A stretch of 18,188 bases of DNA from Candidatus Heimdallarchaeota archaeon (GTDB lineage Archaea > Asgardarchaeota > Heimdallarchaeia > Hodarchaeales > Hodarchaeaceae). Each line of letters begins with the position of its first letter. Position 1 is the stretch's first letter. The position numbers were made by a program, and so were the translations under genes. Location: assembly GCA_019057635.1 (NCBI GenBank), contig DXJL01000165.1, forward strand, positions 1 through 18,188, in the 5' to 3' direction. This document shows positions 4,781 to 18,188 of the stretch, in pieces. The notes under the pieces were generated by a model. The model made no database searches. It was not told where the DNA came from and was given only the letters and a program-made list of their open reading frames with translations.

Positions 4781-5402
4781 AAACATTGAAATGACGGATA
4801 AAGTAGTATTGAAACCTCCTCAACCTTCTTCTCGGGCCTATCAACTCAATAAAATGGCACCTTTAACATTTAAAGAGGTGAAAACATCCATAGGAATAAT
4901 GATGTTTGGAAGTACTACACAAGGCCTGTGTCTGATGGATTTCAAATACCGAAAGAGTTTTCCCAGGATAATCAACCAAATAAAGAACTATTATGGAAAA
5001 AATATTTCGTATGGTACAACAGACATTATCGAACTCGCTGAAGAGCAATTGAAATCTTACTTAGAAGGAAAATTGACATCTTTCACAGTCCCATTAGATA
5101 TCAAGGGATCTGAATTTCAATTAAAGGTATGGAAAGCACTGTTAGATATAAAATATGGGGAAACTGTTTCTTATATGGATATTACACAGAAGATTGGGCG
5201 CCCTGGAGCGGTTCGATCGGTAGGAAATGCAAATGGACAGAATGGAATTGCAATTATTGTTCCCTGTCACCGTGTCGTTGGGTCAGATGGTGCACTTATT
5301 GGGTATGGAGGTGGACTCCCAATAAAAAAGAAATTATTAAAACTAGAAAGTGGAGAAAAAGGCAAATTTATTAGTCAAGACTTAATGAATTTCTTATCTT
5401 GA
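4752..5402 (+). CDS. ogt: Methylated-DNA--protein-cysteine methyltransferase
   Basis: GSEFQLKVW, AVRSVGNANGQN, active site VPCHRV and GYGGG. Overlaps the adaA stop; start may be ATG 4767. Confidence 0.95.
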   Translation: MGKLKMKNLENIEMTDKVVLKPPQPSSRAYQLNKMAPLTFKEVKTSIGIMMFGSTTQGLCLMDFKYRKSFPRIINQIKNYYGKNISYGTTDIIELAEEQLKSYLEGKLTSFTVPLDIKGSEFQLKVWKALLDIKYGETVSYMDITQKIGRPGAVRSVGNANGQNGIAIIVPCHRVVGSDGALIGYGGGLPIKKKLLKLESGEKGKFISQDLMNFLS

Positions 5403-5486
5403 CAAACCACAAGGGATGTAGAAAGTTGTAACAAAGTGGGAGTTTGACCATTCGTACTATAGGGTCGTGAATGAATTTCGCAGGTT

Positions 5487-6047
5487 TTAGAATACTAGGA
5501 AATATCTTGGAACTTTTTTTATGTATTCTTGGTAACTATCCCCATATTGTTTCATACATGCCTTTTCCTGCGCAAGAATTTGGAAGTGATTAAAGACTCT
5601 GGAAATCACTAATAGAATGAAAATCATCCAAGAACCGACAGTAAATCCTATTCCAAACAGAATTACCGATAACATTGTTTCTTGGGGATTCCTTGAAACG
5701 CTATAAAGCCCTTTGGTCACAGGTTGATCCAAAGGAGTGGTAATAAAGTTTAATGTGGCAAGTCTAAGGCCAACCATTCCAAATAAAAACATAACAATAC
5801 CCAAGAAGAATTCAATAAACTCAGACGTAATAGGAGTTAAGATCATTAATATCATTGTAGGAATTGCAACGAATTTACCGCTTAACGTCAAGAACCACTG
5901 TTTTCTATCAAAATTTGATCTATCAAGAAGTTTATCTCTCATTTGTTTTGAAACAAATGTCAAGTTATATAGTTGAAGGAGAAAAAAAGAGAATAGAAAT
6001 ATCCAACCATTAAACAGTGTTAGTTTTAACTCTGGTAAGAACTCCAT
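5487..6047 (-). CDS. Isoprenylcysteine carboxyl methyltransferase / PEMT family membrane methyltransferase
   Basis: Several TM helices; VTKGLYSVSRNP and QEKAC...YG..Y..Y...VPRY C-terminal signature. Confidence 0.8.
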   Translation of the reverse strand: MEFLPELKLTLFNGWIFLFSFFLLQLYNLTFVSKQMRDKLLDRSNFDRKQWFLTLSGKFVAIPTMILMILTPITSEFIEFFLGIVMFLFGMVGLRLATLNFITTPLDQPVTKGLYSVSRNPQETMLSVILFGIGFTVGSWMIFILLVISRVFNHFQILAQEKACMKQYGDSYQEYIKKVPRYFLVF

Positions 6048-6073
6048 TTATATCCCTTCACTACGAATTACTG

Positions 6074-6088
6074 TGTGAATATTTCACA
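6074..6088. promoter_or_regulatory. Palindromic candidate operator TGTGAA-TAT-TTCACA
   Basis: Perfect 6-3-6 inverted repeat 27-41 bp upstream of the minus-strand start at 6047, next to a TTTATAG (minus strand) TATA-like box around 6094-6100. Confidence 0.4.
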
Positions 6089-6266
6089 AAGCGCTATAAA
6101 TGTTTTCAGCTGTGAACATTAAGTATTATTCTCTTCGACCATTCTATCATCGCTTGAATAGATTAGCTTAATGCAAAATTTATGACAATCATTCAGATGA
6201 ATTTGATAAGATTCATAAATCTAAAGGACTTATAAAAAAACTCACATAAAAAATAACTAGCTAGGA

Positions 6267-7136
6267 ATGAAATCTGACTTGGGAATGCATGTTCTAGTTG
6301 TATTCGGATTGGTAGTTAACATAATTTCTCGTCTTATAGGGGTAATTGTATCTTTTGATATGTATTCCAAAACAAAGGAAAGTAGACATTTTCTACAACT
6401 CATGGGTTGGATTTTTCTATTAATTTCTGCATTTCCACCATTTGGTACAACTTTAACTCAAGATCTCTTAATTGTGAATCTCTTTCTTATCACAAATGTG
6501 GTATGCCTTAATATTGGCTTATATTTGCTAATTACAGGACTCTCCATGTACTTCACAATATATTCAAGAAATATTGTAGGAAGTGGTTTACTGATGATTA
6601 TAATCGTACCAATATCCGTGTTCATTCTCCTTGACGTCTCAATAGCTGTCAATGTTTCTGTTTTCATTCAATTTCTTATAATAATGATTTTTCTTACTCT
6701 AGTATATTCCAATCGAAAAGAAATCAGAAATATTTTACAATACAGTTATGGATTGATTGTTCTCTTGATGATATTCTTGATAGGTTTTCTTATCGTTTAC
6801 GTGTATGTTATTACACTTGTTCCTGATTATACTTACGGGTTATATATGAGTACTGATATTATAGCAATAATGGCGTACTATGCATCAGTTGCCATGGTAA
6901 CTTTACTTGGATTAATGGTTTTCCTACATTTAGAGCAAGGAATCTATCTTAAAAAGAAAAATCTCTTAACAGATGATTATTCACATAAGATTGGTAATAT
7001 ATTACAGATCATTATGGGTGCAGGAACTACAATTAAAGCATCATCTGATTCAAGCGAGGTAAATACAACTGCTGATTTAATCTTGGAGAGATCTGAAGAA
7101 GCGGGAGAATTAATAAAAAAAATTAGGGAGATGTGA
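6267..7136 (+). CDS. Multi-pass (~7 TM) membrane protein with a C-terminal HisKA/DHp-like helix pair and no ATPase domain
   Basis: About seven hydrophobic segments, then DDYSHKIGNILQIIMG (H-box-like); the protein ends about 40 aa later. Confidence 0.7.
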   Translation: MKSDLGMHVLVVFGLVVNIISRLIGVIVSFDMYSKTKESRHFLQLMGWIFLLISAFPPFGTTLTQDLLIVNLFLITNVVCLNIGLYLLITGLSMYFTIYSRNIVGSGLLMIIIVPISVFILLDVSIAVNVSVFIQFLIIMIFLTLVYSNRKEIRNILQYSYGLIVLLMIFLIGFLIVYVYVITLVPDYTYGLYMSTDIIAIMAYYASVAMVTLLGLMVFLHLEQGIYLKKKNLLTDDYSHKIGNILQIIMGAGTTIKASSDSSEVNTTADLILERSEEAGELIKKIREM

Positions 7137-7483
7137 GGAAAAAAAGTCGAATAAGTCACCGAAATTACCTTTTTCAATAACGAGCTTCGAATTCCTCTGA
7201 CATACGGTTCATAAGTTGTCATTATAACTAACCGTTTGAATTTTCTATCTGTTTTTTGGAATCCTGAAGTATAAGAGTACTTGTAGTGTTTCGACATGAA
7301 ATAAGCATTATACAAATTATATGGATTCTTCTAGGAGTGACTCCACACAAAAAAAATGTACTTTCTAGGATCAGACTGATATTTGTGTTATGCGGAAAGT
7401 TCTGACAAATATTCTTAAGTTAAATTATAAAAATCTAGATTCAAAAAAGGGATTTAATCTTATATGGATTAGGAGTTATTCTT

Positions 7484-8035
7484 GTGAGAGTTTTAATTGC
7501 ATATGGTACAAGATATGGAGCAACCGAGGAGGTGGCGGAACGAATGGCTGAATGGCTTAAAGCAGCTAATATTGAAGTAGATATTATTAATGTAAAAGCA
7601 AATCAATGGCCTGAACTAACTGAGTATACAGGCCTAATTATAGGATCAGGGATTAAAATCGGCCAATGGACAAAAGAAATTAAAAATTTCATTAAAAAGA
7701 AGAAAGATGCGATTAATAAATTTGATGGATCGAAAGTCTTCTTTGTTTGTTCTGGATATGCAGCTATTCCCGAAAGATATCAAGAGATAAAAGAAGAATA
7801 TTGTTTAAAAGCATTGACGGATTTAGGTGTTACTGTGGATGATTACGAAGCATTTGGGGGAATAATGAATGTCTCTCCCAGCTCGAACGTTGGCTGGTTG
7901 AATAAACAGATTTTAAAAGTAGCTGGTAAGGAATCACCTAATTTCGATCCTAAAGGCATAAATGATTACAGAAATTGGACAAAAATAGAAGAATTTACTC
8001 AAACCTTCATTCAAAGTTTGAAGGATAAATCCTAG
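7484..8035 (+). CDS. Flavodoxin-domain protein (HemG-like long-chain flavodoxin)
   Basis: N-terminal LIAYGTRYGATEEVAE FMN loop, IIGSGIKIGQW, FGG and C-terminal DYRNW..IEEF. Confidence 0.88.
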   Translation: MRVLIAYGTRYGATEEVAERMAEWLKAANIEVDIINVKANQWPELTEYTGLIIGSGIKIGQWTKEIKNFIKKKKDAINKFDGSKVFFVCSGYAAIPERYQEIKEEYCLKALTDLGVTVDDYEAFGGIMNVSPSSNVGWLNKQILKVAGKESPNFDPKGINDYRNWTKIEEFTQTFIQSLKDKS

Positions 8036-8113
8036 AGAGAATCTTAGTCTAATAAATCGATTGTTTGTACTCTTTTGCTTTTTTCCAAACCAGGTACATA
8101 AAACCTCTACAAA

Positions 8114-8402
8114 CCTAGACCTTCAGTCCTGTTTTGGTCAGGCTTTCTGTTAAACATCTTTTTCCCTTAGCGGGGAATCAGACGCACCTTCACCTGGAGT
8201 CGAGGTGTGACTGCAGGACACTATCCTGCCTCCTGAGCCTTAGCGTCGAGGCCTGTCTTCTAATCACAAGGTAATCAGAACGGTCACTCGTTAATTACCC
8301 AGGGGAGCTGTGAACTCGTCTTTGTCCTCCGTTGACGGCGTGGTCCGTTGCCTTCCCATCCTTCCATTGGTGGGAGAGTCAACCGTTTCGAATGACACTA
8401 GG
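8114..8402 (-). ncRNA. Candidate ~290-nt structured non-coding RNA, family not recognised, strand tentative
   Basis: About 54% GC over 8161-8400 (129/240 by hand count) in an AT-rich window; no long ORF; many inverted repeats; complementary ends CCTAG 8114-8118 / CTAGG 8398-8402; TATA-like TTTATAAG at 8431-8438. Confidence 0.5.
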
Positions 8403-8519
8403 GATGACAATTGAGTAGGGGTCTCTTTCCTTTATAAGAACCCCACTTTTTTGGAAATCTCTCCATTGTTTCAAGTGAAAAAATGGCTAGATATTTCTAG
8501 ATATCTCAGCAGCTGTTGA

Positions 8520-8699
8520 CCCACCCGAGTTTCACCAGAATATCAGGGACAAAGTTTTGGTGGGAAACTAATACAGGCAATAGTTGAAACTGCTGATTGG
8601 GAAGGAATACCGATGTATTTAGAAACGGAAACACATTCAATTTCAAACATCATCCGAATAATAGAAAAGAAGAAATTAACTGTTATAGATTATTGCTAA
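8520..8699 (+). pseudogene. GNAT acetyltransferase C-terminal remnant
   Basis: Frame after TGA 8517-8519 reads RVSPEYQGQSFGGKLIQAIVETADWEGIPMYLETET: acetyl-CoA-binding motif A plus the YLET strand; N-terminal half absent. Confidence 0.7.
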
Positions 8700-8745
8700 A
8701 CTTCCTTTATAGTCTTTGAAGTTAACGAAAAGGGTGAAATAACAA

Positions 8746-10215
8746 GTGGTTCGAGAAGTAGACGAAACTAAGTACATATCCATACAAGAAAACGATCTAG
8801 ACCAAAAAATATTGGAAGAGGATCTTTTCTACAATATCACCAAGTCTATTTGTCCGAAATGTAAGAAAACTATTGATGCACAAATACTTGTACGCAAAAA
8901 CAAAGTCCTAATGCGAAAACGCTGTTCACAACATGGATGGTCCGAAAGTCTTATTTCTTCTGATTTTGAGTATTATAGGGCAATTGAACGGTTTAATAAG
9001 CCAGGGATTAAAAAATTGGAATATCAAACAGAAGTAAAAGAAGGATGTCCAGCAGATTGCGGTATCTGCCCTGAACATAAACAACACACATGTTTGGCGT
9101 TAATTGAGATTACTAATCGATGTAATATGGCTTGTCCCATATGTTTCGCTAACGCTGGAGGGAAAGAAGGAGTTGATTTGCCCATAGACGTGATTGAAGG
9201 TATGATTGACAATTTAACAAGCTCAGAATCTAATCAAGTTGAAATTGTACAAATATCGGGAGGGGAGCCATCAATTCATCCCAATTTGTTGAAGATCATT
9301 ACAAAATGTAAGGAAAGAGGTATTAAAACTGTCATGCTGAATACAAATGGGAGAAAATTTGCCTCAGATCTAGCTTTTGCACATGCAGTTAAAAACGCAG
9401 GTTTGAATGCTGTTTACCTTCAGTTCGACGGTTTTGAAAAAAATACCTATGATAAACTCCGTGGCAACCCAAATCTTCTAGAAGAAAAGTTACATGCAAT
9501 AGAGAACCTTTCTTTAACTGGAATAGCTATCACTCTTATCATGACTGTAGTTAAAGGTATAAATGATCATGAGATTGGAGAAATATTACGTTTTGTACAT
9601 GAGTCAAAGGGGATTATGGGTGTATCTTTCCAACCACTTTTTGCAGAAGGGAGATTGGACTTAAAATACGATCCTCTGGATCATTTAACTACAATAGATA
9701 TTATAAAACTTATTGAAGAACAGACGGGCTTCTATACCAAAGAAGACTTTTTTTCCATCCCCTGTCCTGAACCACATTGTTCTGCTTGTTCTTTTTCGTA
9801 TATAGATCCCGATACAAAGGAGTTTACTACAATTAGACGCCTGATTGAAGTTGAAGATTATTTAGACTATTTTACCAATTCTACACTTCCAACAAATGCA
9901 GAGCAAGTAATAAAAGATGCTCTAGAGGAGTTGTTTAGTATGGCCACGACACCAGGATCCATTAATTTGGTGGAAGGTTATTGTGCAGCATGTGGCATCG
10001 ACTTGAACATTGGATCCATTCAGGAATCATTACAAAAATATGTTGAACATCTCAAAATGGTGATGATTAAGCCTTTCATGAGTTCATACGATCTTGACAT
10101 AAAACGACTGATGAAATGCTGCATTCACCAAGTGCTACCTGATGGAAAAATAATGCCTTTCTGTGCCTATAACACAATTTACCGCGATCAATATGACCTC
10201 AAAGATTTCCTATAA
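8746..10215 (+). CDS. Radical SAM enzyme of the MJ0619 / tetraether lipid synthase (Tes)-like family
   Basis: CNMACPIC (CxxxCxxC), SGGEPS, N-terminal SICPKC...KRCSQHG and GCPADCGICPEHKQHTC cysteine clusters, YLQFDG, C-terminal KCCIH...DGKIMPFCAYN. Confidence 0.85.
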   Translation: MVREVDETKYISIQENDLDQKILEEDLFYNITKSICPKCKKTIDAQILVRKNKVLMRKRCSQHGWSESLISSDFEYYRAIERFNKPGIKKLEYQTEVKEGCPADCGICPEHKQHTCLALIEITNRCNMACPICFANAGGKEGVDLPIDVIEGMIDNLTSSESNQVEIVQISGGEPSIHPNLLKIITKCKERGIKTVMLNTNGRKFASDLAFAHAVKNAGLNAVYLQFDGFEKNTYDKLRGNPNLLEEKLHAIENLSLTGIAITLIMTVVKGINDHEIGEILRFVHESKGIMGVSFQPLFAEGRLDLKYDPLDHLTTIDIIKLIEEQTGFYTKEDFFSIPCPEPHCSACSFSYIDPDTKEFTTIRRLIEVEDYLDYFTNSTLPTNAEQVIKDALEELFSMATTPGSINLVEGYCAACGIDLNIGSIQESLQKYVEHLKMVMIKPFMSSYDLDIKRLMKCCIHQVLPDGKIMPFCAYNTIYRDQYDLKDFL

Positions 10216-10232
10216 ACAAGAGAGATATAACC

Positions 10233-11048
10233 ATGTCACTTAAGGACGATTTATTAGGAGGGAGCACTGACTTCAACATAGCCTGTTGCAATTTTTATGA
10301 GCAGGATATCCTCAAGTTACTCTTCGGTGATTCATTCCATCCTGGAGGGTTGGAGCTTACAAAGAAACTGGGAGAAGAACTTTGTCTCCAACCAAGTGAT
10401 TTAGTACTAGACCTTGCTTCAGGGTTGGGTACATCAGCTTGTTTTCTTGCTGAAGAATTTGGATCAAAAATCATTGGACTAGATCTTAGTCGGAAAAATG
10501 TAAAAGAAGCGAATAACGCAGCTCAGAAAAGAGGATTAGATAATATAAAATTTAAGGTAGGGGATGCACAAACCCTTCCGTTTGAAGCTAATTATTTTGA
10601 TGTAGTAATATCTGAATGCTCGTTTTGCATTTTTCCAAATAAAAATGTTGCTGCGAAAGAAATGTACAGAATTTTAAAGCCTGAAGGCAGACTAGGAGTA
10701 TCAGATGTAGCAATAGAAAGAAAATTACCTATAAATGCTCAAGATTTACTCTTAAGAGTAGCCTGTATCGCTGATGCATTGTCAGTTCAAGGATACAAGG
10801 AGGTTTTTGAGAACGTAGGTTTTAAAATTACTTCTGTTTTAGATGAAAAGAAATTTGTCTTAAACACATTTGATGAGATCAAAAAGAAGATCTTCATAGC
10901 AGAACTTGCAACAGGCTTGAAAAAAATCGATATAGGAACATTGAACATTGAAGAAGCAAAATATTGGTTAAAAGAGGGCAAAAGGTTGATCAATGAAGGG
11001 TATGGAACCTACATAACAATGATAGGGAGGAAATCAAGTAGTTATTAA
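10233..11048 (+). CDS. Class I SAM-dependent methyltransferase (ArsM/UbiE-like)
   Basis: HPGG, VLDLASGLG, GDAQTLPF, FDVVISEC, RILKPEGRL and CIADAL; starts 17 bp after the radical SAM stop. Confidence 0.9.
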   Translation: MSLKDDLLGGSTDFNIACCNFYEQDILKLLFGDSFHPGGLELTKKLGEELCLQPSDLVLDLASGLGTSACFLAEEFGSKIIGLDLSRKNVKEANNAAQKRGLDNIKFKVGDAQTLPFEANYFDVVISECSFCIFPNKNVAAKEMYRILKPEGRLGVSDVAIERKLPINAQDLLLRVACIADALSVQGYKEVFENVGFKITSVLDEKKFVLNTFDEIKKKIFIAELATGLKKIDIGTLNIEEAKYWLKEGKRLINEGYGTYITMIGRKSSSY

Positions 11049-11128
11049 GTTTCGGACTGAGGGTTTATTCCAACTTTCCACCCTACATTATTAGGCTCTA
11101 TATGGTAAAAATTCACATATTTTCCATA

Positions 11129-11156
11129 GCTGGTTTAGATTGGTAAGGTATTTACT
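11129..11156 (+). repeat. Intergenic repeat copy A (5'-truncated, degenerate)
   Basis: GCTGGTTTAGATTGGTAAGGTATTTACT; 21/25 match to consensus positions 11-35. Confidence 0.75.
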
Positions 11157-11337
11157 TTCTCATCCAATTAAAACAATATTTCATTGAAACACTTTCATAA
11201 ATGATAAAGCGGTTGGGTCAACTGTTTATCGATGCAAAAAAATTGTAGAAAAGGAAATTCATATAAAAGATTTTAAGGAAGAGTCTATAAGAATACACCT
11301 ACAAGTTAAACATCCAGCTTATTATTGGTAAATCAAG

Positions 11338-11655
11338 GTGATAACAGGGGTGAACAAAGTGTTATCGAAAAAAAAGGTTTTAGAAATATTAGAAGCTGAA
11401 ATCCCTTTTCTTACCAAAACCTACAATATCAAAAAAATTGGTATATTCGGATCATATGCACGGGAGGAACAGACTGAAGCAAGTGATATCGATCTCTTAA
11501 TAGAAGTAAGAAAACCAATTAGTTTTTTTACTCTTTTCGATTTAGAAGATTACCTTACCAGTAAACTAGGCGTCAAAGTAGAAGTCGTCACCCCCAATGC
11601 CCTTAAAGAAATTATTGTTCCAACAATAATGAAGGATGTAATTTATGTCGAATAG
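11338..11655 (+). CDS. MNT minimal nucleotidyltransferase antitoxin (MntA-like)
   Basis: GIFGSYAREEQTEASDIDLL (GSx10DxD); about 100 aa; overlaps the downstream HEPN gene. Confidence 0.93.
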   Translation: MITGVNKVLSKKKVLEILEAEIPFLTKTYNIKKIGIFGSYAREEQTEASDIDLLIEVRKPISFFTLFDLEDYLTSKLGVKVEVVTPNALKEIIVPTIMKDVIYVE

Positions 11656-11989
11656 AAGCCCAAAGCTGTTTATTGCAGATATTAAGGAAGCTATAAGTAA
11701 AATAGAGCAGTATATCAAGGATATGACATTCACTGAATTTGAAAAAGATGATAAGACAGTAGATGCTGTCGTTAGAAACTTGGAAATAATTGGAGAAGCT
11801 GTAAAAAATCTATCACAAGAGATAAAAGATCATTATCCAAACATAAACTGGAGAGGGGCGACAGCTATGCGCGATAGGCTCATTCATGGCTATTTTGGAG
11901 TGGATAAGTCTATTGTGTGGGAAACTATTACTTCCGATCTTCTAGAAATGAAAAAGGGGACAGATACTATGTGGGATGAAATGGAGTAA
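11645..11989 (+). CDS. HEPN / DUF86 RNase toxin (HepT-like)
   Basis: DAVVRNLEIIGEA and MRDRLIHGYFGVD (Rx4H motif followed by Tyr). Confidence 0.93.
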   Translation: MSNRSPKLFIADIKEAISKIEQYIKDMTFTEFEKDDKTVDAVVRNLEIIGEAVKNLSQEIKDHYPNINWRGATAMRDRLIHGYFGVDKSIVWETITSDLLEMKKGTDTMWDEME

Positions 11990-11992
11990 ATC

Positions 11993-12027
11993 GTCGTCAT
12001 AGGCTGGTTTAGATGGGAAAAGTATAT
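11993..12027 (+). repeat. Intergenic repeat copy B
   Basis: GTCGTCATAGGCTGGTTTAGATGGGAAAAGTATAT; 34/35 to consensus; begins 3 bp after the HEPN stop codon. Confidence 0.93.
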
Positions 12028-12240
12028 CCATGATATATACCGTGAAATATACCCCGTACATCAGTAATTTAATTGGCACCGTTACTCTTCTAAGATTGAA
12101 CGTATAATGGGGCAAATGACAAGAGGAACAGCCTATACAGAGAGTATATACTCGAGACTCAACTTCTAGTCTCTTGCATACAAATTTAAAATAGAATTCG
12201 TCTTAAAATCCTGTTCCAATTACCCTCGTTACGATGATGG

Positions 12241-14139
12241 TTAATGTGACAAATTAACCATTTTTTTTGCTGCTAAGAGGTACTCCTCTACTTGGGCTTG
12301 TGCAAGTCGTTTCTGTAGTGGCGCATTCTCTTTGATCAGATTCTCCCATACACTTAATTGGGCTTTCAAGTGGTTTTCTTCTCCAATTACTCTTTCGTGG
12401 AACAATTGAAGGTCGTTTTCTTCTGCGGTGATCTTTGCTTGAGCTAGGAACTGCATCGCTCTTGTAAGATGTCCCTCAATTAAAGCTAATTTTGCTTGGA
12501 GGATTGTCACATCAATAAGCAAGGGAAAAGAATGTTGTTCTTGGGCTAATGAAGCGAGATTGTTTAGAAGCTGCTTAACTTCCTGGAAAACTTCATTTTC
12601 ATCAGTTATTTCATCTGGGGATGATTTTAGCTCAAAAAGGAGAAGTTCACAGAGGTTTAACATAGCAGTTTTTTTTGAATCAGCTAAATAATTCAGTAAG
12701 TTGAGTTTTACGTTTGGATCGTCAATTATTTCTTGAAACAATTGCTGAGCACGGGCTTTATCCTTAATCCTAATGCTAGTTTTCAGTATCAGGGCTTCCG
12801 AGAGTTTATACCATTGATTTAGGAATTGTTTGCTTTGACCTTCCTTTTCATAATACCGATTAAAGAGTTTAAAGTACTTCTTTGCTTCGCTAATGTCCTT
12901 GTTATCGAGCATTACCGCGATTAGCTCGTAATAGGCTAATCCTTCGGTTTCTTGACCAAATCGTAATTTTCTTTCTTCTAATAATTTCAAGCATCTCTTA
13001 TAATAGTCCAAAGCAGTGTCATTGTCCCCTTTCGAGCGATAAACACGGCCAATATGAAGAAACGTTTGACAAAAATAGAAATCATCACTTATTTCCTCCA
13101 ATAGAGGAAGAGCTTTTTGAAAGTGGGTAAGTGCAAGATCTAAGTCTCCTTTAAGGTGATAAAGGTTACCAGCATCTAGTAAATTCCAACTATGCACTAT
13201 TTTCTGGCCAACTTCCTCAAATAGTGCCAGACTTCTATTATAATACTCTAAAGCTTTGTTTAAGCCTCCTTTTGAATATTGACATATATCTCCTAATAAG
13301 TGGAGGCATAAATGAATTCCATCCTTGTCGTCCAGTTTTTCACTGATATATAAGCTCTTTTGATAAGCAGCAAGGGAAGCAGCGGTTTCATCTTTCGATT
13401 TACAATAAAAGACTCCGATATTGAATAGCAGTCTAGCAACACGATTAGTCCCAGGGAGCTCGTCAGCTAAGTGCAGGCTTCTCTGGACATATATCGAAGC
13501 TGTTTCTGGTTCTCCTTTACTTTGATGAACACTAGCAAGATTCAGGAGATGTTCAGCAATTCCTTCCCTATCTTCAAGCTCTTCACTGAGGTTCAAACAA
13601 TCCTGTAAAATTTCTAATTGACGATCATGATCGGCTCTAATTCCCAGAATAGTAGCCAAATCCACCAGTACTTCAACTATACTCTTTTTCTTACCTATCT
13701 TCTTATAAAGTACTACGCTTTCCTGAAAGCATTTTTCTGCACGGTCTAACTCTCCCAACGACCTGTTAATAAAACCCTTATTTCTTTGGAAAAAAGCTGC
13801 CCGTTCTGTTCTCTCCAGCGGTTCTATATTTGGGATATTCTTGAGAATTCGTTCTCCCTCCTCTAGCAGTTTAAGATACCCAGAAAGCTTCTTTACTGAA
13901 TAGGTACTAAAAAATTGTTTAGCCCATCTTAAGGCTTCAATCTTCGTGATGATGGCGTCAACCAGTAATAGCTGGTTTCCCCACACCTGATTTCGAACCT
14001 CTGTTAATGTTCTATCTGCTAATTCTAGACCTTCTGTAGTTTTTCCTGTCTTTACTAGTACTTGACTCTTAAAGAACCTGCATACGAGGCGATCTTCTAA
14101 ATTAATGTCACTAGTATTCTCCAAATTATCAATGATCAC
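12241..14139 (-). CDS. Tetratricopeptide repeat (TPR) protein; true start probably ATG 14198, reached via a frameshift
   Basis: Multiple TPR units (e.g. GNLYHLKGDLDLALTHFQKAL, GRVYRSKGDNDTALDYYKRCL) and a helical C-terminus. Confidence 0.88.
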   Translation of the reverse strand: MIIDNLENTSDINLEDRLVCRFFKSQVLVKTGKTTEGLELADRTLTEVRNQVWGNQLLLVDAIITKIEALRWAKQFFSTYSVKKLSGYLKLLEEGERILKNIPNIEPLERTERAAFFQRNKGFINRSLGELDRAEKCFQESVVLYKKIGKKKSIVEVLVDLATILGIRADHDRQLEILQDCLNLSEELEDREGIAEHLLNLASVHQSKGEPETASIYVQRSLHLADELPGTNRVARLLFNIGVFYCKSKDETAASLAAYQKSLYISEKLDDKDGIHLCLHLLGDICQYSKGGLNKALEYYNRSLALFEEVGQKIVHSWNLLDAGNLYHLKGDLDLALTHFQKALPLLEEISDDFYFCQTFLHIGRVYRSKGDNDTALDYYKRCLKLLEERKLRFGQETEGLAYYELIAVMLDNKDISEAKKYFKLFNRYYEKEGQSKQFLNQWYKLSEALILKTSIRIKDKARAQQLFQEIIDDPNVKLNLLNYLADSKKTAMLNLCELLLFELKSSPDEITDENEVFQEVKQLLNNLASLAQEQHSFPLLIDVTILQAKLALIEGHLTRAMQFLAQAKITAEENDLQLFHERVIGEENHLKAQLSVWENLIKENAPLQKRLAQAQVEEYLLAAKKMVNLSH

Positions 14140-14258
14140 TAAAACTTCATTGAATTTGCTTTTTTAATCAACTGCTGGATTTTTAGCTTGTTCACCATTT
14201 GTATTAATCAACCATAATTTTTTGGCATAATAGACTACTCATTCTGTTTCAGAGCTCT

Positions 14259-15782
14259 TCATGAAGATGATTTTCCCTGGGAAGGAATAGAAATTTGAAA
14301 ATAGGTCTTTTGTTGACTCGAGTGAACGGAAATGTACCAGCCGTGAGCTTCAATTATTTTCTTAACGATAGAAAGACCAAGACCCATACTTTTTGAAATC
14401 GTTGTGAATCCATAGTCAAAGATTTTCTCTTGGATTTTGAAAGGGATTGGAATACCATCATTAATCACCAGAATATGGATAAAATCATAATCTTCTAACA
14501 GCTTTAATTCGATTTTTTGGGGTTTTCCATGTAGTATAGCATTTTCAAAGATGTTCTTGAAGACTTGAAAGAGTTTTTCGACATCGCCTAAAACTTCTGG
14601 AAGCTGATCATGAATAAAAGAGACATTTTTAGGAAGCACAGTCTTAGCAACACTTTGAACAAGATCATTCAAGTTAACCATGTCATTCAACTCAACAACT
14701 AGCCCTGCATCAGCAAGTGTGAGTGAACGCGTCAGTAAAGATTTCATATACTCCACCTGTCTATTGATGATGGAAGCTTCATCATATTCAAGATCTAGAA
14801 GTTGAGTATACCCCTCAATTGTGAATAAACAGTTACTGATATCATGAGCAATGAAATGGGCAAATTCACTGAGTTCTTGTTTTTGACGTCGTAATGTTTT
14901 CTCAACATTCTTCAGCTTGGTTATGTCAATTACGGATACTATAATCTTTTCTAACGTTTTTTCATAACCAGGGATAACAGATAAACGTACAATAACATCA
15001 ATTTTCTCTCCTGTAAATTTATAACCAGGAAATTCATTTTGGTAGACGGTGTTCCCATGAAAAAGAGCAATAAGTTCTTCTTTGAATAGATCCGTAGCTT
15101 CAGCATTAAAGAATGTGGAAAGTCCTTCAAAAAATTCTGCTTTGTCCTTAGCGTTGTACATCTTTATAGTTGTATTGTTAACATTAATTATTTTGACCAT
15201 ACTTGAAAATTTTTCAACTTCGTCAGGATTTGAATCCATGAACTGGCGTAAATCCTGTATTCCTTTTGATTTTAATTGATCGAAATAGTCTTTGACATCA
15301 GAAAAATCTTCTTCCCATAAACTAATGGGTGATTCATCAAAAATGATCCGATAACGTTCTTCACTTTCTCTCAGGGCTTTTTCCATACGTCTGTGACTTA
15401 CTACCTGGAGAATATTATGCCGTAGCTCACCGAATAAAGTTTTCATATCACCTCGTTTTTCCATATAATAGTTTGCACCTAGGTTCAACGCCCTAATTGC
15501 CACTTCTTCTCTACCCCTTCCTGTTAAAATGATAACAGGAAGATTCTTATTTGACTCTCTCAACTTACTAAGTAACTCTAAGCCATTCAGTATAGGCATT
15601 TGATAATCTGTTACGATAACATCAATATTTCTCACATTCAGCTCTACAAAAACTTTCGTTGGATCAGATATTGGATAAAATTTTAGGCTTTCATCCCCTA
15701 TGAGCTGCATATACTTCTGTGTCAATTGTAAAAAGCTAGGTTCATCATCAACATGAAGTACAGAGATCACTTCTTCCATCAT
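14259..15782 (-). CDS. Hybrid sensor kinase REC-PAS-HisKA-HATPase
   Basis: VLHVDDE...TDYQMPILNG...ILTGRG receiver; PAS-like middle; AHDISN H-box; NIFENAILHG, NDG, FDYGFTT and GLGL (N/G1/F/G2 boxes). No TM segments. Confidence 0.93.
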   Translation of the reverse strand: MMEEVISVLHVDDEPSFLQLTQKYMQLIGDESLKFYPISDPTKVFVELNVRNIDVIVTDYQMPILNGLELLSKLRESNKNLPVIILTGRGREEVAIRALNLGANYYMEKRGDMKTLFGELRHNILQVVSHRRMEKALRESEERYRIIFDESPISLWEEDFSDVKDYFDQLKSKGIQDLRQFMDSNPDEVEKFSSMVKIINVNNTTIKMYNAKDKAEFFEGLSTFFNAEATDLFKEELIALFHGNTVYQNEFPGYKFTGEKIDVIVRLSVIPGYEKTLEKIIVSVIDITKLKNVEKTLRRQKQELSEFAHFIAHDISNCLFTIEGYTQLLDLEYDEASIINRQVEYMKSLLTRSLTLADAGLVVELNDMVNLNDLVQSVAKTVLPKNVSFIHDQLPEVLGDVEKLFQVFKNIFENAILHGKPQKIELKLLEDYDFIHILVINDGIPIPFKIQEKIFDYGFTTISKSMGLGLSIVKKIIEAHGWYISVHSSQQKTYFQISIPSQGKSSS

Positions 15783-15973
15783 TGATTCCTCTATAACAAT
15801 ATTTTGTAGTTATTTTTCTCTTATATTAATTCATATGATAAGAATTACACACTGATACGGGAATCTAGGTCAGTATAGGAATTTGATGGGAGTCGAAATG
15901 ATTTTCCATTTACCAAGACGACTTTGCAGATAAATACTATCTATACTGTTTCAAGTTGGATCAGAATTGAAGT

Positions 15974-16015
15974 GTCGTAAAAGGCTGGTTTAGATAAGAA
16001 AAGTATATACTAGGG
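15974..16015 (+). repeat. Intergenic repeat copy C
   Basis: GTCGTAAAAGGCTGGTTTAGATAAGAAAAGTATATACTAGGG; 32/35 to the core consensus. Confidence 0.93.
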
Positions 16016-16168
16016 TATAGATCGTCATTAATTCATCTTTGAAGTGTAATCAATACAGGATGTTTCACATCTGGTTAATAAAATGAAGTTATTTTGAATT
16101 AGACGTATTTAGAACATATTTCAGTAATATAATGATTAATTGAAAAATAAACCAAACCTTTAAAATAC

Positions 16169-16435
16169 GTGGGCACACTAGTGGGAATGGGAATAACGAT
16201 GGGTATTGTTGAAATTGATAATCGTGGACGAATCACTATCCCGAAAGAAGAACGCGAACGCTTGGGGTTAACACCTGGAAAAAAGGTATTGATTAGAGAG
16301 AAAGATGGTTCTCTAATAATTAAGCGTTTAATATCTCCTGAAAGGTTTATCACAGAATTAAAGGGATGTATAACCATTGAAAATCACCAAATTGACCCTC
16401 TAAAACTAAAAGAAATGTGGGGAGTTAAATTCTAA
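16169..16435 (+). CDS. AbrB/MazE/SpoVT-family antitoxin (VapB-like)
   Basis: EIDNRGRITIPKEERERLGLTPG swapped-hairpin motif; likely start ATG 16199; directly abuts the PIN gene. Confidence 0.9.
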   Translation: MGTLVGMGITMGIVEIDNRGRITIPKEERERLGLTPGKKVLIREKDGSLIIKRLISPERFITELKGCITIENHQIDPLKLKEMWGVKF

Positions 16436-16843
16436 ATGTATATGGTTGATAGTAATATCTGGGTCTATTATTTCGATGAAAACCTTCCTGAACACTCCAC
16501 AGTGGTGAAATATCTTGATCCTTTAATTAAACAAGGAAATATTGCCACAAGTGCAATAATCCTTATAGAAGTAATACATTATCTTTTTAAAAGGTTGGGA
16601 CCCGTTGTTGGTTCAGAGAAAAGCCATGTTTTCCAATTAGGTCATTTTGAAACTCTTGAATTTACCTCCAAAGATTTAGATGAGTTTTTGGAAATGTTTC
16701 AAAAAGTTTCACATCATGGAATAGGAGGAAGAGATGTCACAATTCTCGTTTGTATGAAAAAAGCTGAAATTTCAAAATTAGTAACTCATGATCAAGATTT
16801 TAAGAAAATAAAAGACATAGAAGTCATTGATCCGATAGATTGA
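16436..16843 (+). CDS. vapC: PIN-domain VapC-type toxin
   Basis: MVDSNIWVY, EVIH, GGRDVTI and LVTHDQDFKKI acidic PIN residues. Confidence 0.92.
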   Translation: MYMVDSNIWVYYFDENLPEHSTVVKYLDPLIKQGNIATSAIILIEVIHYLFKRLGPVVGSEKSHVFQLGHFETLEFTSKDLDEFLEMFQKVSHHGIGGRDVTILVCMKKAEISKLVTHDQDFKKIKDIEVIDPID

Positions 16844-16870
16844 CACCAGACTTATTACATATGAATAATC

Positions 16871-16912
16871 GTCGTCAAAGGCTGTTTTAGATGGGAAAAG
16901 TAATTACTAGGG
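16871..16912 (+). repeat. Intergenic repeat copy D
   Basis: GTCGTCAAAGGCTGTTTTAGATGGGAAAAGTAATTACTAGGG; 32/35 to core; 27 bp after the vapC stop. Confidence 0.93.
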
Positions 16913-17051
16913 CACATACCAGACCTCCATTCTCTAGAAGTCAGGCCATTATCAGCAGGATGAACATATTTATTCTATGTTTTCGAATTCCAAGAACTTA
17001 GCAATCATTAATGCATTTAAAAGAAATTAATAGTTTAACTAAGAGTGAGTA

Positions 17052-18014
17052 GTGAGAAATTTGAAAAAATTCTTGATTGGGACAGTAGGTATATCTCGAC
17101 CGTTTTGGGCATTCTTTCTCACTTTTTTATATTTCCTTATTCCATTAATTCTCATTAATAGTTTCTTGTTCTTTTCCATCCTTCTTGGATTTTGTGTAAT
17201 GTTCTCATTTTATTTGGGTCATTTTAGCCTAAATGCTATATACGATAAAGATGTAGATAGAAATAACCCTAGGAAAGATTTATTCAATTCATGGGTTGAG
17301 CAACTTGGGATTGGGAAAAAATGGATATGGTGTATGATATTCATTTTTTGGTCTTTCAGTTTTTTAGGCTCCATAATTCACTCTATGATATATAATAAAA
17401 GCCTGCAATTTTTGGTACCTATTGCGATTATTCTTGCTATTGTATATTCGGTACCTCCTTTACAGTTAAAAGGAAAAGCTCCATGGGATTTAGTGATAGA
17501 CTTACTAAGCTTTGGTGTTCTTGGTCCTTTTTTCGCTATAGAGTGCATATTAATCATTCCCCCTTGGCAATTAGTTATCCCTATTATCCTATTTTCTATA
17601 TCCACTATTGCAATTGTAGTATTGCCAACAGTGATGATGGATACAACAGTTGACAGAGAACATTGTTACAATACTTTTTCTGTCAAATATGGGCTTGAAA
17701 ACACTATGAATGTCATCAAATTCTTTTTTATCGTTCAAGTTTCAGCTTTGGCTGGATTCGGAATTCTTGCTCTTCTCCGAGCAAACTTTCTATTATTAAT
17801 TATCATTCTTCTTTTCCCCTTTGGGGAATTAAACATTTTAGGAGATTTATTTTTTTCAGACTTTGTTAGCGAGGAATCCGCAGAGGTAGTAGTCAAAAGA
17901 TTAATGCGTAGCTCTTTAGTTTTTGGAATAGAAATAATAGCGGCTGTACACTTCTTAAATTGGCTTGGACTTGATTTCAACCAATTCTTCCAAGAAATAT
18001 TATCACTTTTATAG
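17052..18014 (+). CDS. UbiA-family prenyltransferase
   Basis: NAIYDKDVDRNNPRK (NxxxDxxxD), YSVPPLQLK, second motif DTTVDREH..TFSVKYG, and many TM helices. Confidence 0.88.
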   Translation: MRNLKKFLIGTVGISRPFWAFFLTFLYFLIPLILINSFLFFSILLGFCVMFSFYLGHFSLNAIYDKDVDRNNPRKDLFNSWVEQLGIGKKWIWCMIFIFWSFSFLGSIIHSMIYNKSLQFLVPIAIILAIVYSVPPLQLKGKAPWDLVIDLLSFGVLGPFFAIECILIIPPWQLVIPIILFSISTIAIVVLPTVMMDTTVDREHCYNTFSVKYGLENTMNVIKFFFIVQVSALAGFGILALLRANFLLLIIILLFPFGELNILGDLFFSDFVSEESAEVVVKRLMRSSLVFGIEIIAAVHFLNWLGLDFNQFFQEILSLL

Positions 18015-18082
18015 CGATATTATCAAGACTGTGTTAAGAATTATGTCTTAATATTGAGGAAACACAAAGAAGATCCAGTTAT

Positions 18083-18124
18083 GTCGTCAAAGGCTGGTTT
18101 AGATAGGAGAAGTATATGCTAGGG
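18083..18124 (+). repeat. Intergenic repeat copy E
   Basis: GTCGTCAAAGGCTGGTTTAGATAGGAGAAGTATATGCTAGGG; 33/35 to core; 68 bp after the UbiA-like stop. Confidence 0.93.
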
Positions 18125-18188
18125 GTCAATCCTGTTGTCGGATAGATTGACAGATATGGACATTTATAGACAAATAGAACCAGATGAC

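Follow-up and report, generated by a model that had tools for sequence, protein, structure and literature searches.

A genus-restricted polar DNA site separates unrelated gene modules in Asgard archaea in what looks like a new, integron-like way of gene shuffling

Mobile modules based on Xer/dif recombination occur in bacteria, where they include IMEX elements and the pdif modules of Acinetobacter, whose sites alternate in orientation. No archaeal IMEX came up in a literature search on XerA/dif in archaea. Archaeal dif sites are described as single-copy elements with an 11-6-11 layout (PMC2958812; review PMC8371274), and those of Thermococcales are reported to have a conserved accessory sequence alongside (Cortez et al., 2010, PMC2958812). 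Moreover, attC arrays have been reported in Archaea (Ghaly et al., 2022, bioRxiv 10.1101/2022.02.06.479319). How genes are gained and reshuffled in Hodarchaeota-type Asgard archaea, a group under discussion as the nearest relatives that eukaryotes have among archaea (PMC11529989), is an open question. Here we analyse a window of 18,188 nt, the whole stretch of DNA under study, which is one entire contig (DXJL01000165.1) of such an archaeon.

A preliminary description had claimed five co-oriented, intergenic copies of a repeat in this window, and all five are found. A 35-nt motif matches the + strand at 11993, 15974, 16871 and 18083 with 1–3 mismatches each, the same count as claimed for the four full copies, and it is absent from all 200 dinucleotide shuffles of the sequence. 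The decayed fifth copy was recovered at 11118–11160; as described, it is the most degraded one. The spacings of 874, 3981, 897 and 1212 bp agree as well, and an nhmmer profile (--max, E≤1) detects no copy left of 11123, in line with the site-free first 11 kb. Four copies follow a stop codon, as had been reported (11048 to 11129, 11989 to 11993, 16843 to 16871 and 18014 to 18083), and the copy at 15974 sits after the start of a reversed gene. The Pfam assignments of the intervening modules also agree with the proposed ones, that of UbiA being weak. The features of the window are:

1–11117, no strand: left flank, without sites (nhmmer, Pfam).
11118–11160, +: site copy 1, leftmost and decayed (..CCATAGCTGGTTTAGATTGGTAAGGTATTTAC), without right arm; 63% identity to the reference copy, nhmmer E 2.7e-7.
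11338–11989, +: cassette 1, a toxin-antitoxin pair (Pfam).
11338–11655, +: MNT nucleotidyltransferase of cassette 1 (NTP_transf_2, PF01909, 6.6e-13).
11645–11989, +: HEPN/HepT-like RNase of cassette 1 (PF01934, 1.2e-31).
11991–12041, +: site copy 2; left part, left arm GTATATCC (12022–12029), short spacer, right arm ATATATAC(C).
12241–15782, −: cassette 2, reversed (Pfam).
12241–14139, −: TPR protein of cassette 2 (Pfam).
14259–15782, −: hybrid kinase of cassette 2, Response_reg/PAS/HisKA/HATPase (Pfam).
15971–16022, +: site copy 3; left arm GTATATAC (16003–16010), spacer TAGG (16011–16014), right arm GTATAGAT (16015–16022).
16169–16843, +: cassette 3 (Pfam).
16169–16435, +: AbrB/MazE-type antitoxin of cassette 3 (Pfam).
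16436–16843, +: PIN/VapC toxin of cassette 3 (Pfam).
16869–16919, +: site copy 4; left arm GTAATTAC (16900–16907), spacer TAGG, right arm GCACATAC (16912–16919) with 2 mismatches.
17052–18014, +: cassette 4, UbiA-family prenyltransferase-like membrane protein (PF01040, 8.3e-7; a weak assignment, 29 bits against a curated cut-off of 34.2 bits).
18081–18123, +: site copy 5; left part, left arm GTATATGC (18112–18119), spacer TAGG (18120–18123).
18124–18188, +: first 65 nt of a ~480-bp multicopy non-coding mobile element, with matches to 13 other contigs.

The genes of the left flank are ordinary according to Pfam (arginase family, Ada/Ogt, PEMT, flavodoxin, HMPTM radical-SAM and methyltransferase); a 289-aa membrane-protein gene among them (6267–7136) is also found 6.8 kb upstream of the array in the related genome G020. 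The TPR gene of cassette 2 has 81% nucleotide identity to a gene in the array of another species (locus L029), and the pair of cassette 3 has 74% to a pair in G011 (L013).

Overall the site spans about 50–55 nt and consists of a polar left part followed by a palindromic core. The left part is an asymmetric, conserved sequence of about 32 nt (consensus AACTCCGTAAAAGGCTGGTTTAGATnnnAAAA), and conservation extends over about 42 nt of the site. In the core, two arms GTATATAC flank a 4-nt spacer YNNR, a dyad that can be read as 9-2-9 or, with a 6-nt centre, as 7-6-7 (GTATATA-CYNNRG-TATATAC). The repeat of the preliminary description is real, but its length of ~35–42 bp was too short, the site being ~55 nt with palindromic core and right arm included. 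Nor does the symmetry lie in the TTTAGAT part, which had been said to resemble XerA dif arms loosely; it lies in the dyad GTATATAC-N4-GTATATAC. Among the 80 copies with an nhmmer E-value of at most 1e-5, a right arm matching GTATATAC with no more than 2 mismatches is present at the exact spacing in 44 (0.5% for random 8-mers) and unrecognisable, with at least 5 mismatches, in 30; truncated copies consisting of the left part only occur. The first spacer position is Y in 40/43 copies and the fourth is R in 41/43, with 13 different values of the central dinucleotide. In most copies symmetry does not reach the outermost 4 nt that an 11-nt arm would have, and one site in the closed genome G010 is symmetric over ~26 nt per arm. 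A variable centre between conserved arms is the look of a dimeric DNA enzyme's site. However, we count the wide spacer variation among copies against site-specific recombination: classical tyrosine recombinases tolerate such variation poorly, and with a serine enzyme it would restrict the pairs of sites that can be joined.

In the source genome, a search for the 28-nt core (≤6 mismatches) finds 16 copies on three of the 214 contigs, co-oriented within each contig, and the nhmmer profile adds a 17th clear copy at the end of contig C97 and only weak variants elsewhere. The copies are therefore clustered, as a cassette array had been expected to be. The genome-wide scatter in random orientation that the preliminary description named as the opposite outcome is not seen, and a dispersed repeat of the REP/MITE type is ruled out by the same 17 clear copies, which are confined to the three contigs and share one orientation within each. 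The suspected continuation of the array to the right was also confirmed, since contig C207 carries it on across a small inserted mobile element. The window ends at 18188 because the ~480-bp element is inserted between the spacer and the right arm of site copy 5: the right ends of the window and of C207 are the two ends of one such element, the right arm, (G)TATATACC, lies on C207 past the insertion, and two contigs of run X2 pass from 18124 directly into C207 sequence, revealing the empty site. C97 and C207 share segments that are 89–96% identical, so that the assembled genome may mix two strains and the number of copies per cell is uncertain; their homology breaks 206–538 bp from the nearest site.

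The site is restricted to one genus of Hodarchaeota-type Asgard archaea. Its left-part pattern (≤2 mismatches) is present in 19 of the 21 other genomes of the genus and in none of 19 genomes from eight other, neighbouring genera, while a reversed-pattern control gives no match in any of these genomes. The palindrome alone is also genus-specific (18/21 genomes versus 1/19 outside). Among 185,579 species genomes the exact pattern occurs in 27 stretches, 25 of which are titled as Asgard or uncultured archaeal MAGs and two of which are single bacterial matches. Adjacent sites point the same way, as had been predicted, in 73 of the 74 pairs that 19 multi-copy contigs of the genus offer. Contigs L025 and L079 have one inverted copy each. 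Sites in relatives are spaced 60 bp to 7 kb apart with genes in between, at densities of up to 9 sites per 17 kb. The closed genome G010 has few sites, which are dispersed and do not share one orientation (289.5 kb +, 317.2 kb −, 320.5 kb −, 334.4 kb symmetric, 1.988 Mb −). GC skew, sampled in G015, shows no pattern and does not place the terminus, and each genome examined has four Orc1/Cdc6 genes.

The modules between the sites are 0.07–7 kb long, often contain several genes and lie in either orientation. Their cargo is diverse and accessory-like: 124 array ORFs of the relatives match 115 Pfam families, the commonest being ABC_tran and PIN with 7 members each, and toxin-antitoxin pairs make up 5 of about 17 modules in the source genome. 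Housekeeping-like genes, such as those for aspartate kinase and ASD, are included too. Several modules recur between site copies in more than one species, among them the following three. Sites flank the CbiMNQO-NikR operon in the source genome, G020 and G018, a PIN toxin pair in the source genome and G018, and endonuclease V (EndoV) in the source genome and G020; downstream of the PIN pair of G020 the site copy is degenerate and falls under the nhmmer threshold, and in G002 the Cbi module no longer has a site on either side. The neighbours of all three differ from species to species. From Cbi to PIN there are two sites 24 bp apart in G020 and the same two sites with a 562-bp, ORF-bearing insert between them in G018, and in the source genome Cbi is followed by YdjM instead of PIN. 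The left-part subtype goes with the upstream module (..GTCGTCCATGG for Cbi, with a short deletion in the G018 copy, AACTCCKTMAAAGG for PIN and CTGTCGTAAAARG for EndoV). Spacer and right flank, in turn, go with the downstream module, the start of Cbi always being TAGG-GTATATAyyAACsGTyGAATT. In every informative junction, of which there are few, homology switches past position 30 and no later than the spacer. Thus, modules are reordered with the switch inside the motif, as the preliminary description had envisaged, and the partition of the site between its two neighbours places the exchange within the core. Of 137 ends of inter-species homology blocks within arrays, 31 lie in a site and 72 within 100 bp of one, compared to 3.3% and 14.7% for random placement (maxima 9.5% and 24.8% in 2000 simulations). 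This statistic is inflated, because sites are intergenic and intergenic DNA diverges fastest, and the counts are not independent, since the genomes are related to one another and several block ends can belong to one alignment; the other 65 ends are more than 100 bp away from any site.

Which enzyme might act at the site? The only site-specific recombinases detected in the source genome are one XerA and two IS607-type serine enzymes. The XerA, its sole PF00589 protein, is encoded on another contig than the array of the window; it passes the NCBIfam model for archaeal XerA (270 bits, cut-off 220) and fails the integron-integrase model TIGR02249 (165 bits, cut-off 265). A XerA-type protein is present in the source genome and in all five relatives tested, and in two closed genomes it lies far from the sites. 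We count it against a XerA-run array that XerA is universal whereas the motif is genus-specific. The IS607-type transposases are paired with TnpB-like genes, and the ends of these elements are unlike the motif. The neighbouring tyrosine or serine recombinase looked for on the strength of the preliminary description did not turn up beside any array: phmmer searches with XerA and the two serine recombinases (E≤10) give no hit among 1,070 stop-to-stop ORFs of at least 80 aa in 97 loci (684 kb, with overlaps), or among the 129 ORFs of a 60-kb site-bearing stretch of G010. The 25 Pfam families that array ORFs match most often include no recombinase family, and no resolvase or invertase gene was found near arrays. 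Circular or excised modules were not seen in public runs, which yielded short contigs only.

Taken together, the proposed cassette-capture site stands as far as clustering, co-orientation, rightward continuation, reordering and the absence of attC are concerned, but it has no dedicated recombinase near the arrays. We give about an even chance to a genus-wide chromosomal gene-cassette array assembled through site-specific recombination at a novel site, the prime suspect for the enzyme being XerA. Besides the lack of a local recombinase, points against this reading are the copies with no right arm, the dispersed sites of G010, the inverted copies of L025 and L079, the block ends far from any site, the loss of both sites around Cbi in G002, the size and varied orientation of the often multi-gene modules with their housekeeping-like genes, and the lack of circular forms in the public runs. 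More tentatively, we propose a parallel to integrons, unrelated to attC/IntI, in which cassettes are captured and shuffled at a ~50-nt polar GTATATAC-YNNR-GTATATAC site by XerA, or a recombinase of an unknown family, acting in trans. A dimeric site-specific recombinase would bind both arms and exchange strands at the boundary between left arm and spacer or inside the spacer, and the left part would provide accessory or extended-arm contacts that make the site polar. A module would leave as a circle with one hybrid site and could re-enter any other site in the same orientation. The outcome would be arrays that run in one direction and hold unrelated modules; the many toxin-antitoxin pairs among these would add stability. 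The enzyme would be encoded away from the arrays; other candidates besides chromosomal XerA, the sole tyrosine recombinase detected in the source genome, are a serine recombinase of the IS607 type and an enzyme that escaped recognition.

Alternatively, the site might bind a genus-specific protein whose main role is a different one (as in a nucleoid or SMC boundary, fork barrier or operator), with its polarity deriving from replication or chromosome organisation and the reshuffling being a byproduct of homologous recombination across ~42-nt identities after exchange between strains. We consider this unlikely, even though it would fit the lack of a dedicated recombinase near arrays, the dispersed sites of mixed orientation in G010 and the many block ends away from sites; the conserved part is long enough for portable homology, and fork traps also have polar, co-oriented sites. 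However, homology switches right of position 30, up to the spacer, rather than across 42 nt, albeit in few junctions. It would be odd for an architectural or fork-trap element to recur at intervals from 60 bp to 7 kb, or in tandem with 24 bp between copies. Moreover, homologous recombination between direct repeats of one array gives deletions only, and it leaves unexplained why each new module brings its own left part and right arm.

It is improbable that the sites are att scars of tandem accretion, left when elements with their own undetected integrase repeatedly integrated at one att and decayed to integrase-less, CIME-like remnants bounded by attL/attR-type hybrids. Unrelated modules bounded by direct repeats would be expected from this, as would the bimodality of two-armed and left-only sites (44 versus 30 of 80) and the fully symmetric (334,375) and half-symmetric (289,514) sites that lie 45 kb apart in G010, and divergent archaeal integrases may escape PF00589. 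Yet no integrase of any detected family is found in or beside any array, the pattern has no match in 2.9 million viral contigs, and the cargo is metabolic or toxin-antitoxin rather than plasmid or virus genes. Modules down to 24–700 bp and up to 9 sites in 17 kb are likewise unlike remnants of integrative elements.

Still less probable is a regulatory role, with the site as a promoter or operator through which the genes downstream are driven or co-regulated as a regulon island. The TATA-like arms with the A-rich stretch before them (AAAAG-TATATA) resemble an archaeal BRE/TATA box, and the next ORF points away from the site at 10 of 16 copies in the source genome. At the other six, however, the next gene is reversed, and the next forward start codon follows the left arm at 102–295 nt, a long distance for archaeal promoters. 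Furthermore, site orientation is fixed relative to other sites and not to genes, the modules are functionally unrelated, and a regulator site does not explain the homology switches within it. Least credible of all is the idea that the copies are REP-like repeats or small non-autonomous mobile elements, each inserted into intergenic DNA by itself: the site is short, intergenic, multicopy and palindromic, and two transposable elements of the source genome insert exactly into its core, as transposable elements do into REP sequences, but the strong copies are confined to three of the 214 contigs and are co-oriented there, the left and right parts of one copy have different evolutionary partners, which is incompatible with a copy inserted as one unit, and no Y1/RAYT-type transposase was detected in the source genome (91.6% complete).

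A site found in one genus only, between unrelated modules whose order differs, looks like a new, integron-like way of gene shuffling. If true, the genus-wide, site-defined cassette array would be a concrete and testable route of gene gain, loss and exchange in uncultured organisms, and the integron idea would have been invented twice, independently. If XerA were the enzyme, "Xer-exploiting" mobile DNA would extend to Archaea, this being the first archaeal cassette system of that kind. The short conserved site is also a practical marker of hypervariable accessory regions in Asgard metagenomes.

How do the arrays compare with known systems? CRISPR, with spacers of 25–75 nt and no genes between repeats, is ruled out by the intervening genes and by the distances of 874–3981 bp in the window, which had already been judged too wide, and of 60 bp to 7 kb in relatives. 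With the crossover sites of small serine recombinases (res site I, hix/gix) the core shares two inverted half-sites ~4 nt apart and a variable central dinucleotide, an architecture expected for a 2-bp staggered cut; in contrast to these systems, the serine enzymes of the source genome are IS607-type only, and no resolvase or invertase is near the arrays. As in Xer/dif modules, one reading of the core has short inverted arms on either side of a 6-nt centre, and a Xer-type recombinase is encoded at a distance in the host, which would explain the lack of a local enzyme. Conserved flanking sequence is a further parallel, with the dif sites of Thermococcales. Unlike dif, however, the arms are symmetric over 7–9 nt only and copies number up to 17 or more. 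A single-copy terminus dif is ruled out by the 17 copies in the source genome and the several dispersed sites in closed G010, and pdif modules are ruled out by the direct orientation of nearly all adjacent pairs.

In contrast to integron attC, the Asgard site has neither R''/R' boxes nor a stable single-strand hairpin, and is a ~50-nt conserved sequence with a simple dyad core. The two-box expression RYYYAAC...GTTRRRY (35–130 nt apart) matches only coding sequence (12573–12706 and 14685–14807) and never a repeat, and four site copies fold as single strands at only −0.6 to −1.6 kcal/mol on either strand, which upholds the earlier statement that attC features are lacking. No IntI is present in the source genome, whose sole tyrosine recombinase stays below the integron-integrase cut-off, and no array locus has a XerA-like ORF, whereas an integron has its integrase, IntI with an extra domain, beside an attI where the array starts. 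The Asgard modules are also larger than integron cassettes, are often operons, lie in both orientations and appear to carry their own promoters. What the arrays share with sedentary chromosomal integrons and CALINs is a one-directional series of unrelated, toxin-antitoxin-rich modules that are bounded by co-oriented copies of a lineage-specific, highly similar site and vary in content and order among relatives. The mode of inheritance is common to them as well, the upstream module keeping the greater part of each site and the downstream module a short right part, and, as in these Asgard genomes, arrays of CALINs often stand without an adjacent integrase.

The preliminary description had reported a 35-nt intergenic motif at 11993, 15974, 16871 and 18083, and we recovered all four copies on the + strand with 1-3 mismatches, while none of 200 dinucleotide-preserving shuffles of the window matched it. 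An unbiased repeat search, in which the motif family was the top match, added the decayed leftmost copy (11118-11160). The five copies are spaced by 874, 3981, 897 and 1212 bp, every one is intergenic, and Pfam assigns the modules between them as first described: MNT plus HEPN, a reversed TPR protein with a hybrid histidine kinase, and a MazE/AbrB-type antitoxin with a PIN toxin. UbiA, named as the fourth module, has a Pfam match, although a weak one. The left 11 kb contain ordinary genes and, according to an nhmmer profile, no site copy, and an E-value-based Rfam scan of the whole window gave 0 matches. Two stretches in the flavodoxin/radical-SAM intergenic region (8088-8311 and 8432-8525) recur elsewhere in the genome (C132:2602-2826, 96%; C188:3-95, 93%) and are probably another small repeat or MITE.

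In the source genome G000 (3.19 Mb, 214 contigs, 36% GC), of which the window is the complete 18,188-bp contig C142, there are 16 matches to the 28-nt core at up to 6 mismatches. All of them are on three of the 214 contigs.

Core copies in G000
C97: seven copies, all on the + strand
C142 (window): five copies, all on the + strand
C207: four copies, all on the - strand

An unfiltered nhmmer profile built from these 16 copies added a 17th at the extreme end of C97, and a few weak site variants on two further contigs. In the variants (T)CGCACA stands in place of GGCTGG, with ..TTTAGATnnnAAAAGTATA.. and the dyad retained; each contig carries two, co-oriented, and they may be a second site subfamily or belong to older arrays.

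Variant sites in G000
C144:875-907 and 2240-2275, - strand
C128:2716-2743 and 13943-13973, + strand

The GC content of the window array (0.348), C97 (0.344) and C207 (0.340) compared with the flank (0.355) gives no signal of foreign DNA.

The site is conserved throughout the genus. Of 21 other genomes in the genus, 19 have its left-part pattern (up to 2 mismatches), versus 0 of 19 genomes from eight neighbouring genera, and a reversed-pattern control gave zero matches. The exact pattern, searched in one genome per species across 185,579 species, occurs in 27 stretches, titled Hodarchaeota or Hodarchaeum (18), Heimdallarchaeota (4), Thor-, Hermod- and uncultured archaeon (one each) and bacterial (2); the two single bacterial matches are of the kind expected by chance. 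There were 0 exact matches in viral contigs and 25 further stretches in JGI metagenomes. The host is archaeal and has four Orc1/Cdc6 genes. Co-orientation, one of the features initially noted, extends to the relatives: the window and 22 loci hold 96 copies (E<=0.01), and on the 19 multi-copy contigs 73 of the 74 neighbouring pairs point the same way. The metagenome loci add 18 of 19 co-oriented pairs, some of these contigs probably duplicating MAG contigs. Two loci (L025 and L079) hold one inverted copy each. In the closed 4.9-Mb genome G010 the sites are few, scattered and variously oriented, and the closed genome G015 has one.

An alignment of 80 well-scoring copies resolves the anatomy of the site. 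The information content per position is 1.0-1.9 bits at 13-27 (AAGGCTGGTTTAGAT) and 31-42 (AAAAGTATATAC), positions 3-12 show moderate conservation and define subtypes (..GTCGTCCATGG, ..CTCCGTAAAAGG and ..TGTCGTAAAAGG), and positions 28-30 as well as the four that follow the left arm are variable. The eight positions after this 4-nt spacer repeat GTATATAC with at most 2 mismatches in 44 of the 80 copies (random expectation 0.5%) and look random (at least 5 mismatches) in 30. The spacer reads YNNR (Y in 40/43, R in 41/43), its central dinucleotide taking 13 values. Repeated arm and spacer together make the core a dyad, GTATATACY-NN-RGTATATAC. The palindrome by itself is genus-specific (18/21 vs 1/19), and dispersed palindromes of other species have a related but distinct outer arm (TTGGTTAGGTTTTGAAAA). 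One G010 site is symmetric over ~26 nt on either side, which suggests that each protein subunit reads an inner and an outer box, and that in array sites only the left outer box survives. There are also truncated copies, reduced to the first ~22 nt.

Between the sites gene content is reshuffled in a cassette-like manner. All-against-all comparison of the loci showed very different content among species, with some modules recurring. The CbiMNQO-NikR operon (Cbi) is flanked by two sites in G000 (C207), G020 and G018, and has no flanking sites in G002. Sites bound a PIN toxin pair at both ends in G000 (C97) and G018; at the G020 pair the downstream copy is degenerate and scores below the nhmmer threshold. 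Endonuclease V (EndoV) is site-bounded in G000 and G020, and in G002 it has one truncated site upstream (C84), with a separate EndoV tail on C22 that terminates at a site. A 630-bp module shared by G006 and G012 is 95.6% identical from one site to the next. The recurring modules have other neighbours in other species, in line with the reordering anticipated in the preliminary description: in G020 and G018 Cbi is followed by PIN, and in G000 the orders are MNT/HEPN-Cbi-YdjM and, on another contig, TPR-PIN-VapBC. The Cbi-PIN interval of G020 consists of two sites 24 bp apart; in G018 a 562-bp insert with an ORF separates these two sites. Ahead of the PIN module in G000 lie ~70 bp left over from the Cbi tail and a single Cbi-type site, the expected product of a site-by-site deletion. 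About 5 of the 17 G000 modules are toxin-antitoxin pairs; others include ADH, EndoV, enoyl-CoA hydratase, TPR proteins, a kinase, the cobalt/nickel transporter operon, YdjM, AsnC/AsnA, aspartate kinase/ASD and UbiA. The 124 ORFs in the relatives' arrays represent 115 Pfam families, led by ABC_tran (7), PIN (7) and methyltransferases (4), and the 25 commonest include no recombinase family.

Two side features accompany these modules. A ~70-nt conserved tail (..CACCATTTTgA..AATTGC..) precedes GTCGTCCATGG-subtype sites, and a remnant of it, together with a degenerate site, separates the ECH and TPR genes; some sites may be longer than 55 nt, or the tails may be scars of lost Cbi modules. The locus L020 has one composite junction present twice in a single contig, consisting of a CCATGG-type left part, the right arm GTATATAG, TTTTATTCGTG and the next site's left part; it represents a mini-module of about 75 nt that holds no cargo and is duplicated inside an array.

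Conserved tails and duplicated junction
L001 (on C97) 8957-9045 and 12008-12096: ~70-nt tail
L002 (on C207), L015 and L023, ends of the Cbi modules: ~70-nt tail
L020 520-665 and 7180-7340: composite junction

Recurring modules also indicate where homology switches. The left-part subtype is fixed by the module on its left regardless of what follows, and the spacer and right flank by the module on the right regardless of its predecessor; Cbi, for example, always starts with TAGG-GTATATAyyAACsGTyGAATT. Close pairs are alike through the left arm and diverge from the spacer on, as in the 93% identical EndoV tails of G000 and G002. Breakpoints inside the motif, as proposed earlier, are thus found, and the switch maps to the boundary between left arm and spacer at the resolution of a few junctions. 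Of the 137 ends of homology blocks within the arrays, 31 coincide with a site and 72 are no more than 100 bp from one, against 3.3% and 14.7% under random placement (maxima 9.5% and 24.8% in 2000 simulations), a statistic inflated by fast intergenic divergence and non-independent alignments.

The suggestion that the array continues to the right proved correct. The last 65 nt of the window form one end of a ~480-bp non-coding multicopy element, and the right end of C207 forms its other end. At the fifth window site the element lies exactly between spacer and right arm (..GTATATGC-TAGG-[element]-(G)TATATACC...), and in the public sequencing run X2 two contigs pass from 18124 directly into C207 sequence with the element absent. 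Therefore, the array runs on into C207 in the same orientation. A search for public runs listed no RNA data, and the four DNA runs compared consist of short Logan contigs, whose uncovered parts carry no weight, and contig joints at 16010-16016 and from 16011 to 18085 were left uncounted, their sides being only 20-35 letters within the repeat. C97 and C207 share two segments, corresponding to YdjM and ASD, in differing module contexts. Either C97 is a second related array, or the MAG mixes two strains; the bin has an estimated contamination of 3.2% and a completeness of 91.6%.

Segments shared by C97 and C207
L001 1-488 and L002 3425-2939: 96% identity
L001 2564-3047 and L002 482-1: 89% identity

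The ~480-bp element (GGGGTCAAyACTGTTGTCGGATAGATTGACAG to GGGTAAGTCTTTCAGAACGG) occurs on at least 20 contigs of G000 and breaks many contigs. Every insertion lies immediately 3' of (T/G)AGG and shows no obvious target duplication, and Rfam returned only two sub-threshold chance matches to the element. In its behaviour it resembles an IS200/IS605-derived PATE, although the search for a Y1 transposase in G000 found none. A ~1.6-kb IS (ends GTGAGATGTG.. and ..CACCTCTCAC) encodes a ~500-aa DDE_Tnp_1 transposase, interrupted by a stop in the G000 copy. At three independent sites it immediately follows the 4-nt spacer and either takes the place of the right arm or stands before it; the G003 flanks read GTATATAC-AATT-[IS]-CAGG-GTATATAC, without a matching target duplication. 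The palindromic core thus seems to be a preferred target of two unrelated mobile elements. A 274-aa ORF after the site at C97:704, considered as array enzyme, is the front of the DDE transposase; since this occurs in only 4 of 22 genomes of the genus, it belongs to a passenger IS and is not the enzyme of the array.

Mobile elements
C150:25323-25799 and C111:7760-8232 (G000): full ~480-bp element
18124-18188 (window): part of the ~480-bp element
L001 (C97) 738-2354, L069 (G003:C204) 1377-2993 and L017 6356-end: ~1.6-kb IS
C97:12860: solo end of the ~1.6-kb IS

A recombinase neighbouring the array, as envisaged at the outset, did not emerge. G000 encodes one PF00589 protein (contig C157; Phage_int_SAM_1 and Phage_integrase domains), which matches the NCBIfam archaeal XerA model with 270 bits (cut-off 220) and fails the integron-integrase models. 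Five relatives have one such XerA each, which lies far from their own sites in those cases that allow a judgement. Two small serine recombinases are also encoded by G000, each paired with a TnpB-like gene (IS607-type), whose element ends do not resemble the motif. Phmmer searches with XerA and both serine enzymes gave 0 matches in the 97 loci, which comprise 1,070 ORFs and 684 kb with overlaps, and nothing in an additional 60 kb of G010. Y1_Tnp, DEDD_Tnp_IS110 and large-serine "Recombinase" domains had 0 matches each in the 91.6% complete G000, as had Y2_Tnp, whose model was equally silent in every control genome. ORFs of 261, 162 and 289 aa beside sites match no Pfam family, and a 255-aa ORF beside a G010 site has a homologue in G020 and none in G000. 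We therefore infer that the array enzyme acts in trans, XerA being, by elimination, the first suspect.

The dispersed palindromes with the TTGGTTAGGTTTTGAAAA arm occur in three of five genomes examined. They are missing from G000 and the closed G015, and therefore are not a universal dif. Two G010 sites could represent a dif-like or attB-like ancestor of the array site.

Long-armed and half-symmetric sites in G010
L059, G010:C1:334349-334420: symmetric site, ~26 nt per arm
L058, G010:C1:289496-289533: half-symmetric site with outer arm TTGGTTAGGTTTTGAAAA (ortholog L061 in G008)

They are 45 kb apart, with an inverted array-type site between them (317,140-317,195), and their distance from the point opposite the best Orc1/Cdc6 gene of G010 is 41-86 kb, a weak indication given four such genes per genome. 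In G015, GC and AT skew and ORF-strand bias, computed for 21 stretches of 20 kb (L011 and 20 others taken at intervals of about 158 kb), revealed no usable trend.

A cassette-capture recombination site, as put forward in the preliminary description, is the best available reading of these data, its chances being about evenly balanced. Established here are the array itself, its conservation across the genus and the cassette-like rearrangement of modules; the recombination chemistry and the enzyme are deduced. The main rival is a genus-specific protein-binding site of other function, at which modules are reshuffled by homologous recombination. It would account for the lack of a local recombinase, for the dispersed G010 sites in mixed orientation and for the many block ends away from sites, but not readily for the position of the homology switch, the tandem sites separated by 24 bp, or the left part and right arm that every module brings with it. 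A promoter is unlikely, as 6 of 16 copies are followed by a gene in reverse orientation and the distance to start codons is 102-295 nt. Tandem accretion of integrative elements is quite improbable, any integrase and viral or plasmid cargo being absent. The copy distribution rules out a REP or MITE, and the spacing excludes CRISPR, as first argued.

In the searchable literature on Hodarchaeales integrons, mobile elements and repeats and on Asgard cassettes we found no account of this array, and the motif string retrieved only four unrelated primer papers. With attC-specific tools, attC arrays have been reported in about 8% of Asgard genomes (Ghaly et al., 2022, bioRxiv 10.1101/2022.02.06.479319). 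Measured against published accounts of Xer/dif, an Xer enzyme is present and the core allows a reading as short arms flanking a 6-nt centre, but the number of copies, the length of the arms and the missing assignment to a terminus depart from the definition. The 8-4-8 dyad with its variable central dinucleotide is just as reminiscent of the crossover sites of serine recombinases. Unlike an integron, the array has no IntI and, as initially noted, no attC boxes or fold at the motif, and its modules are large, operon-like and in either orientation. It is, however, like a sedentary chromosomal integron or CALIN in its lineage-specific site, its one-way array and its variable cargo rich in toxin-antitoxin pairs, and in that the site is inherited mainly with the upstream module.
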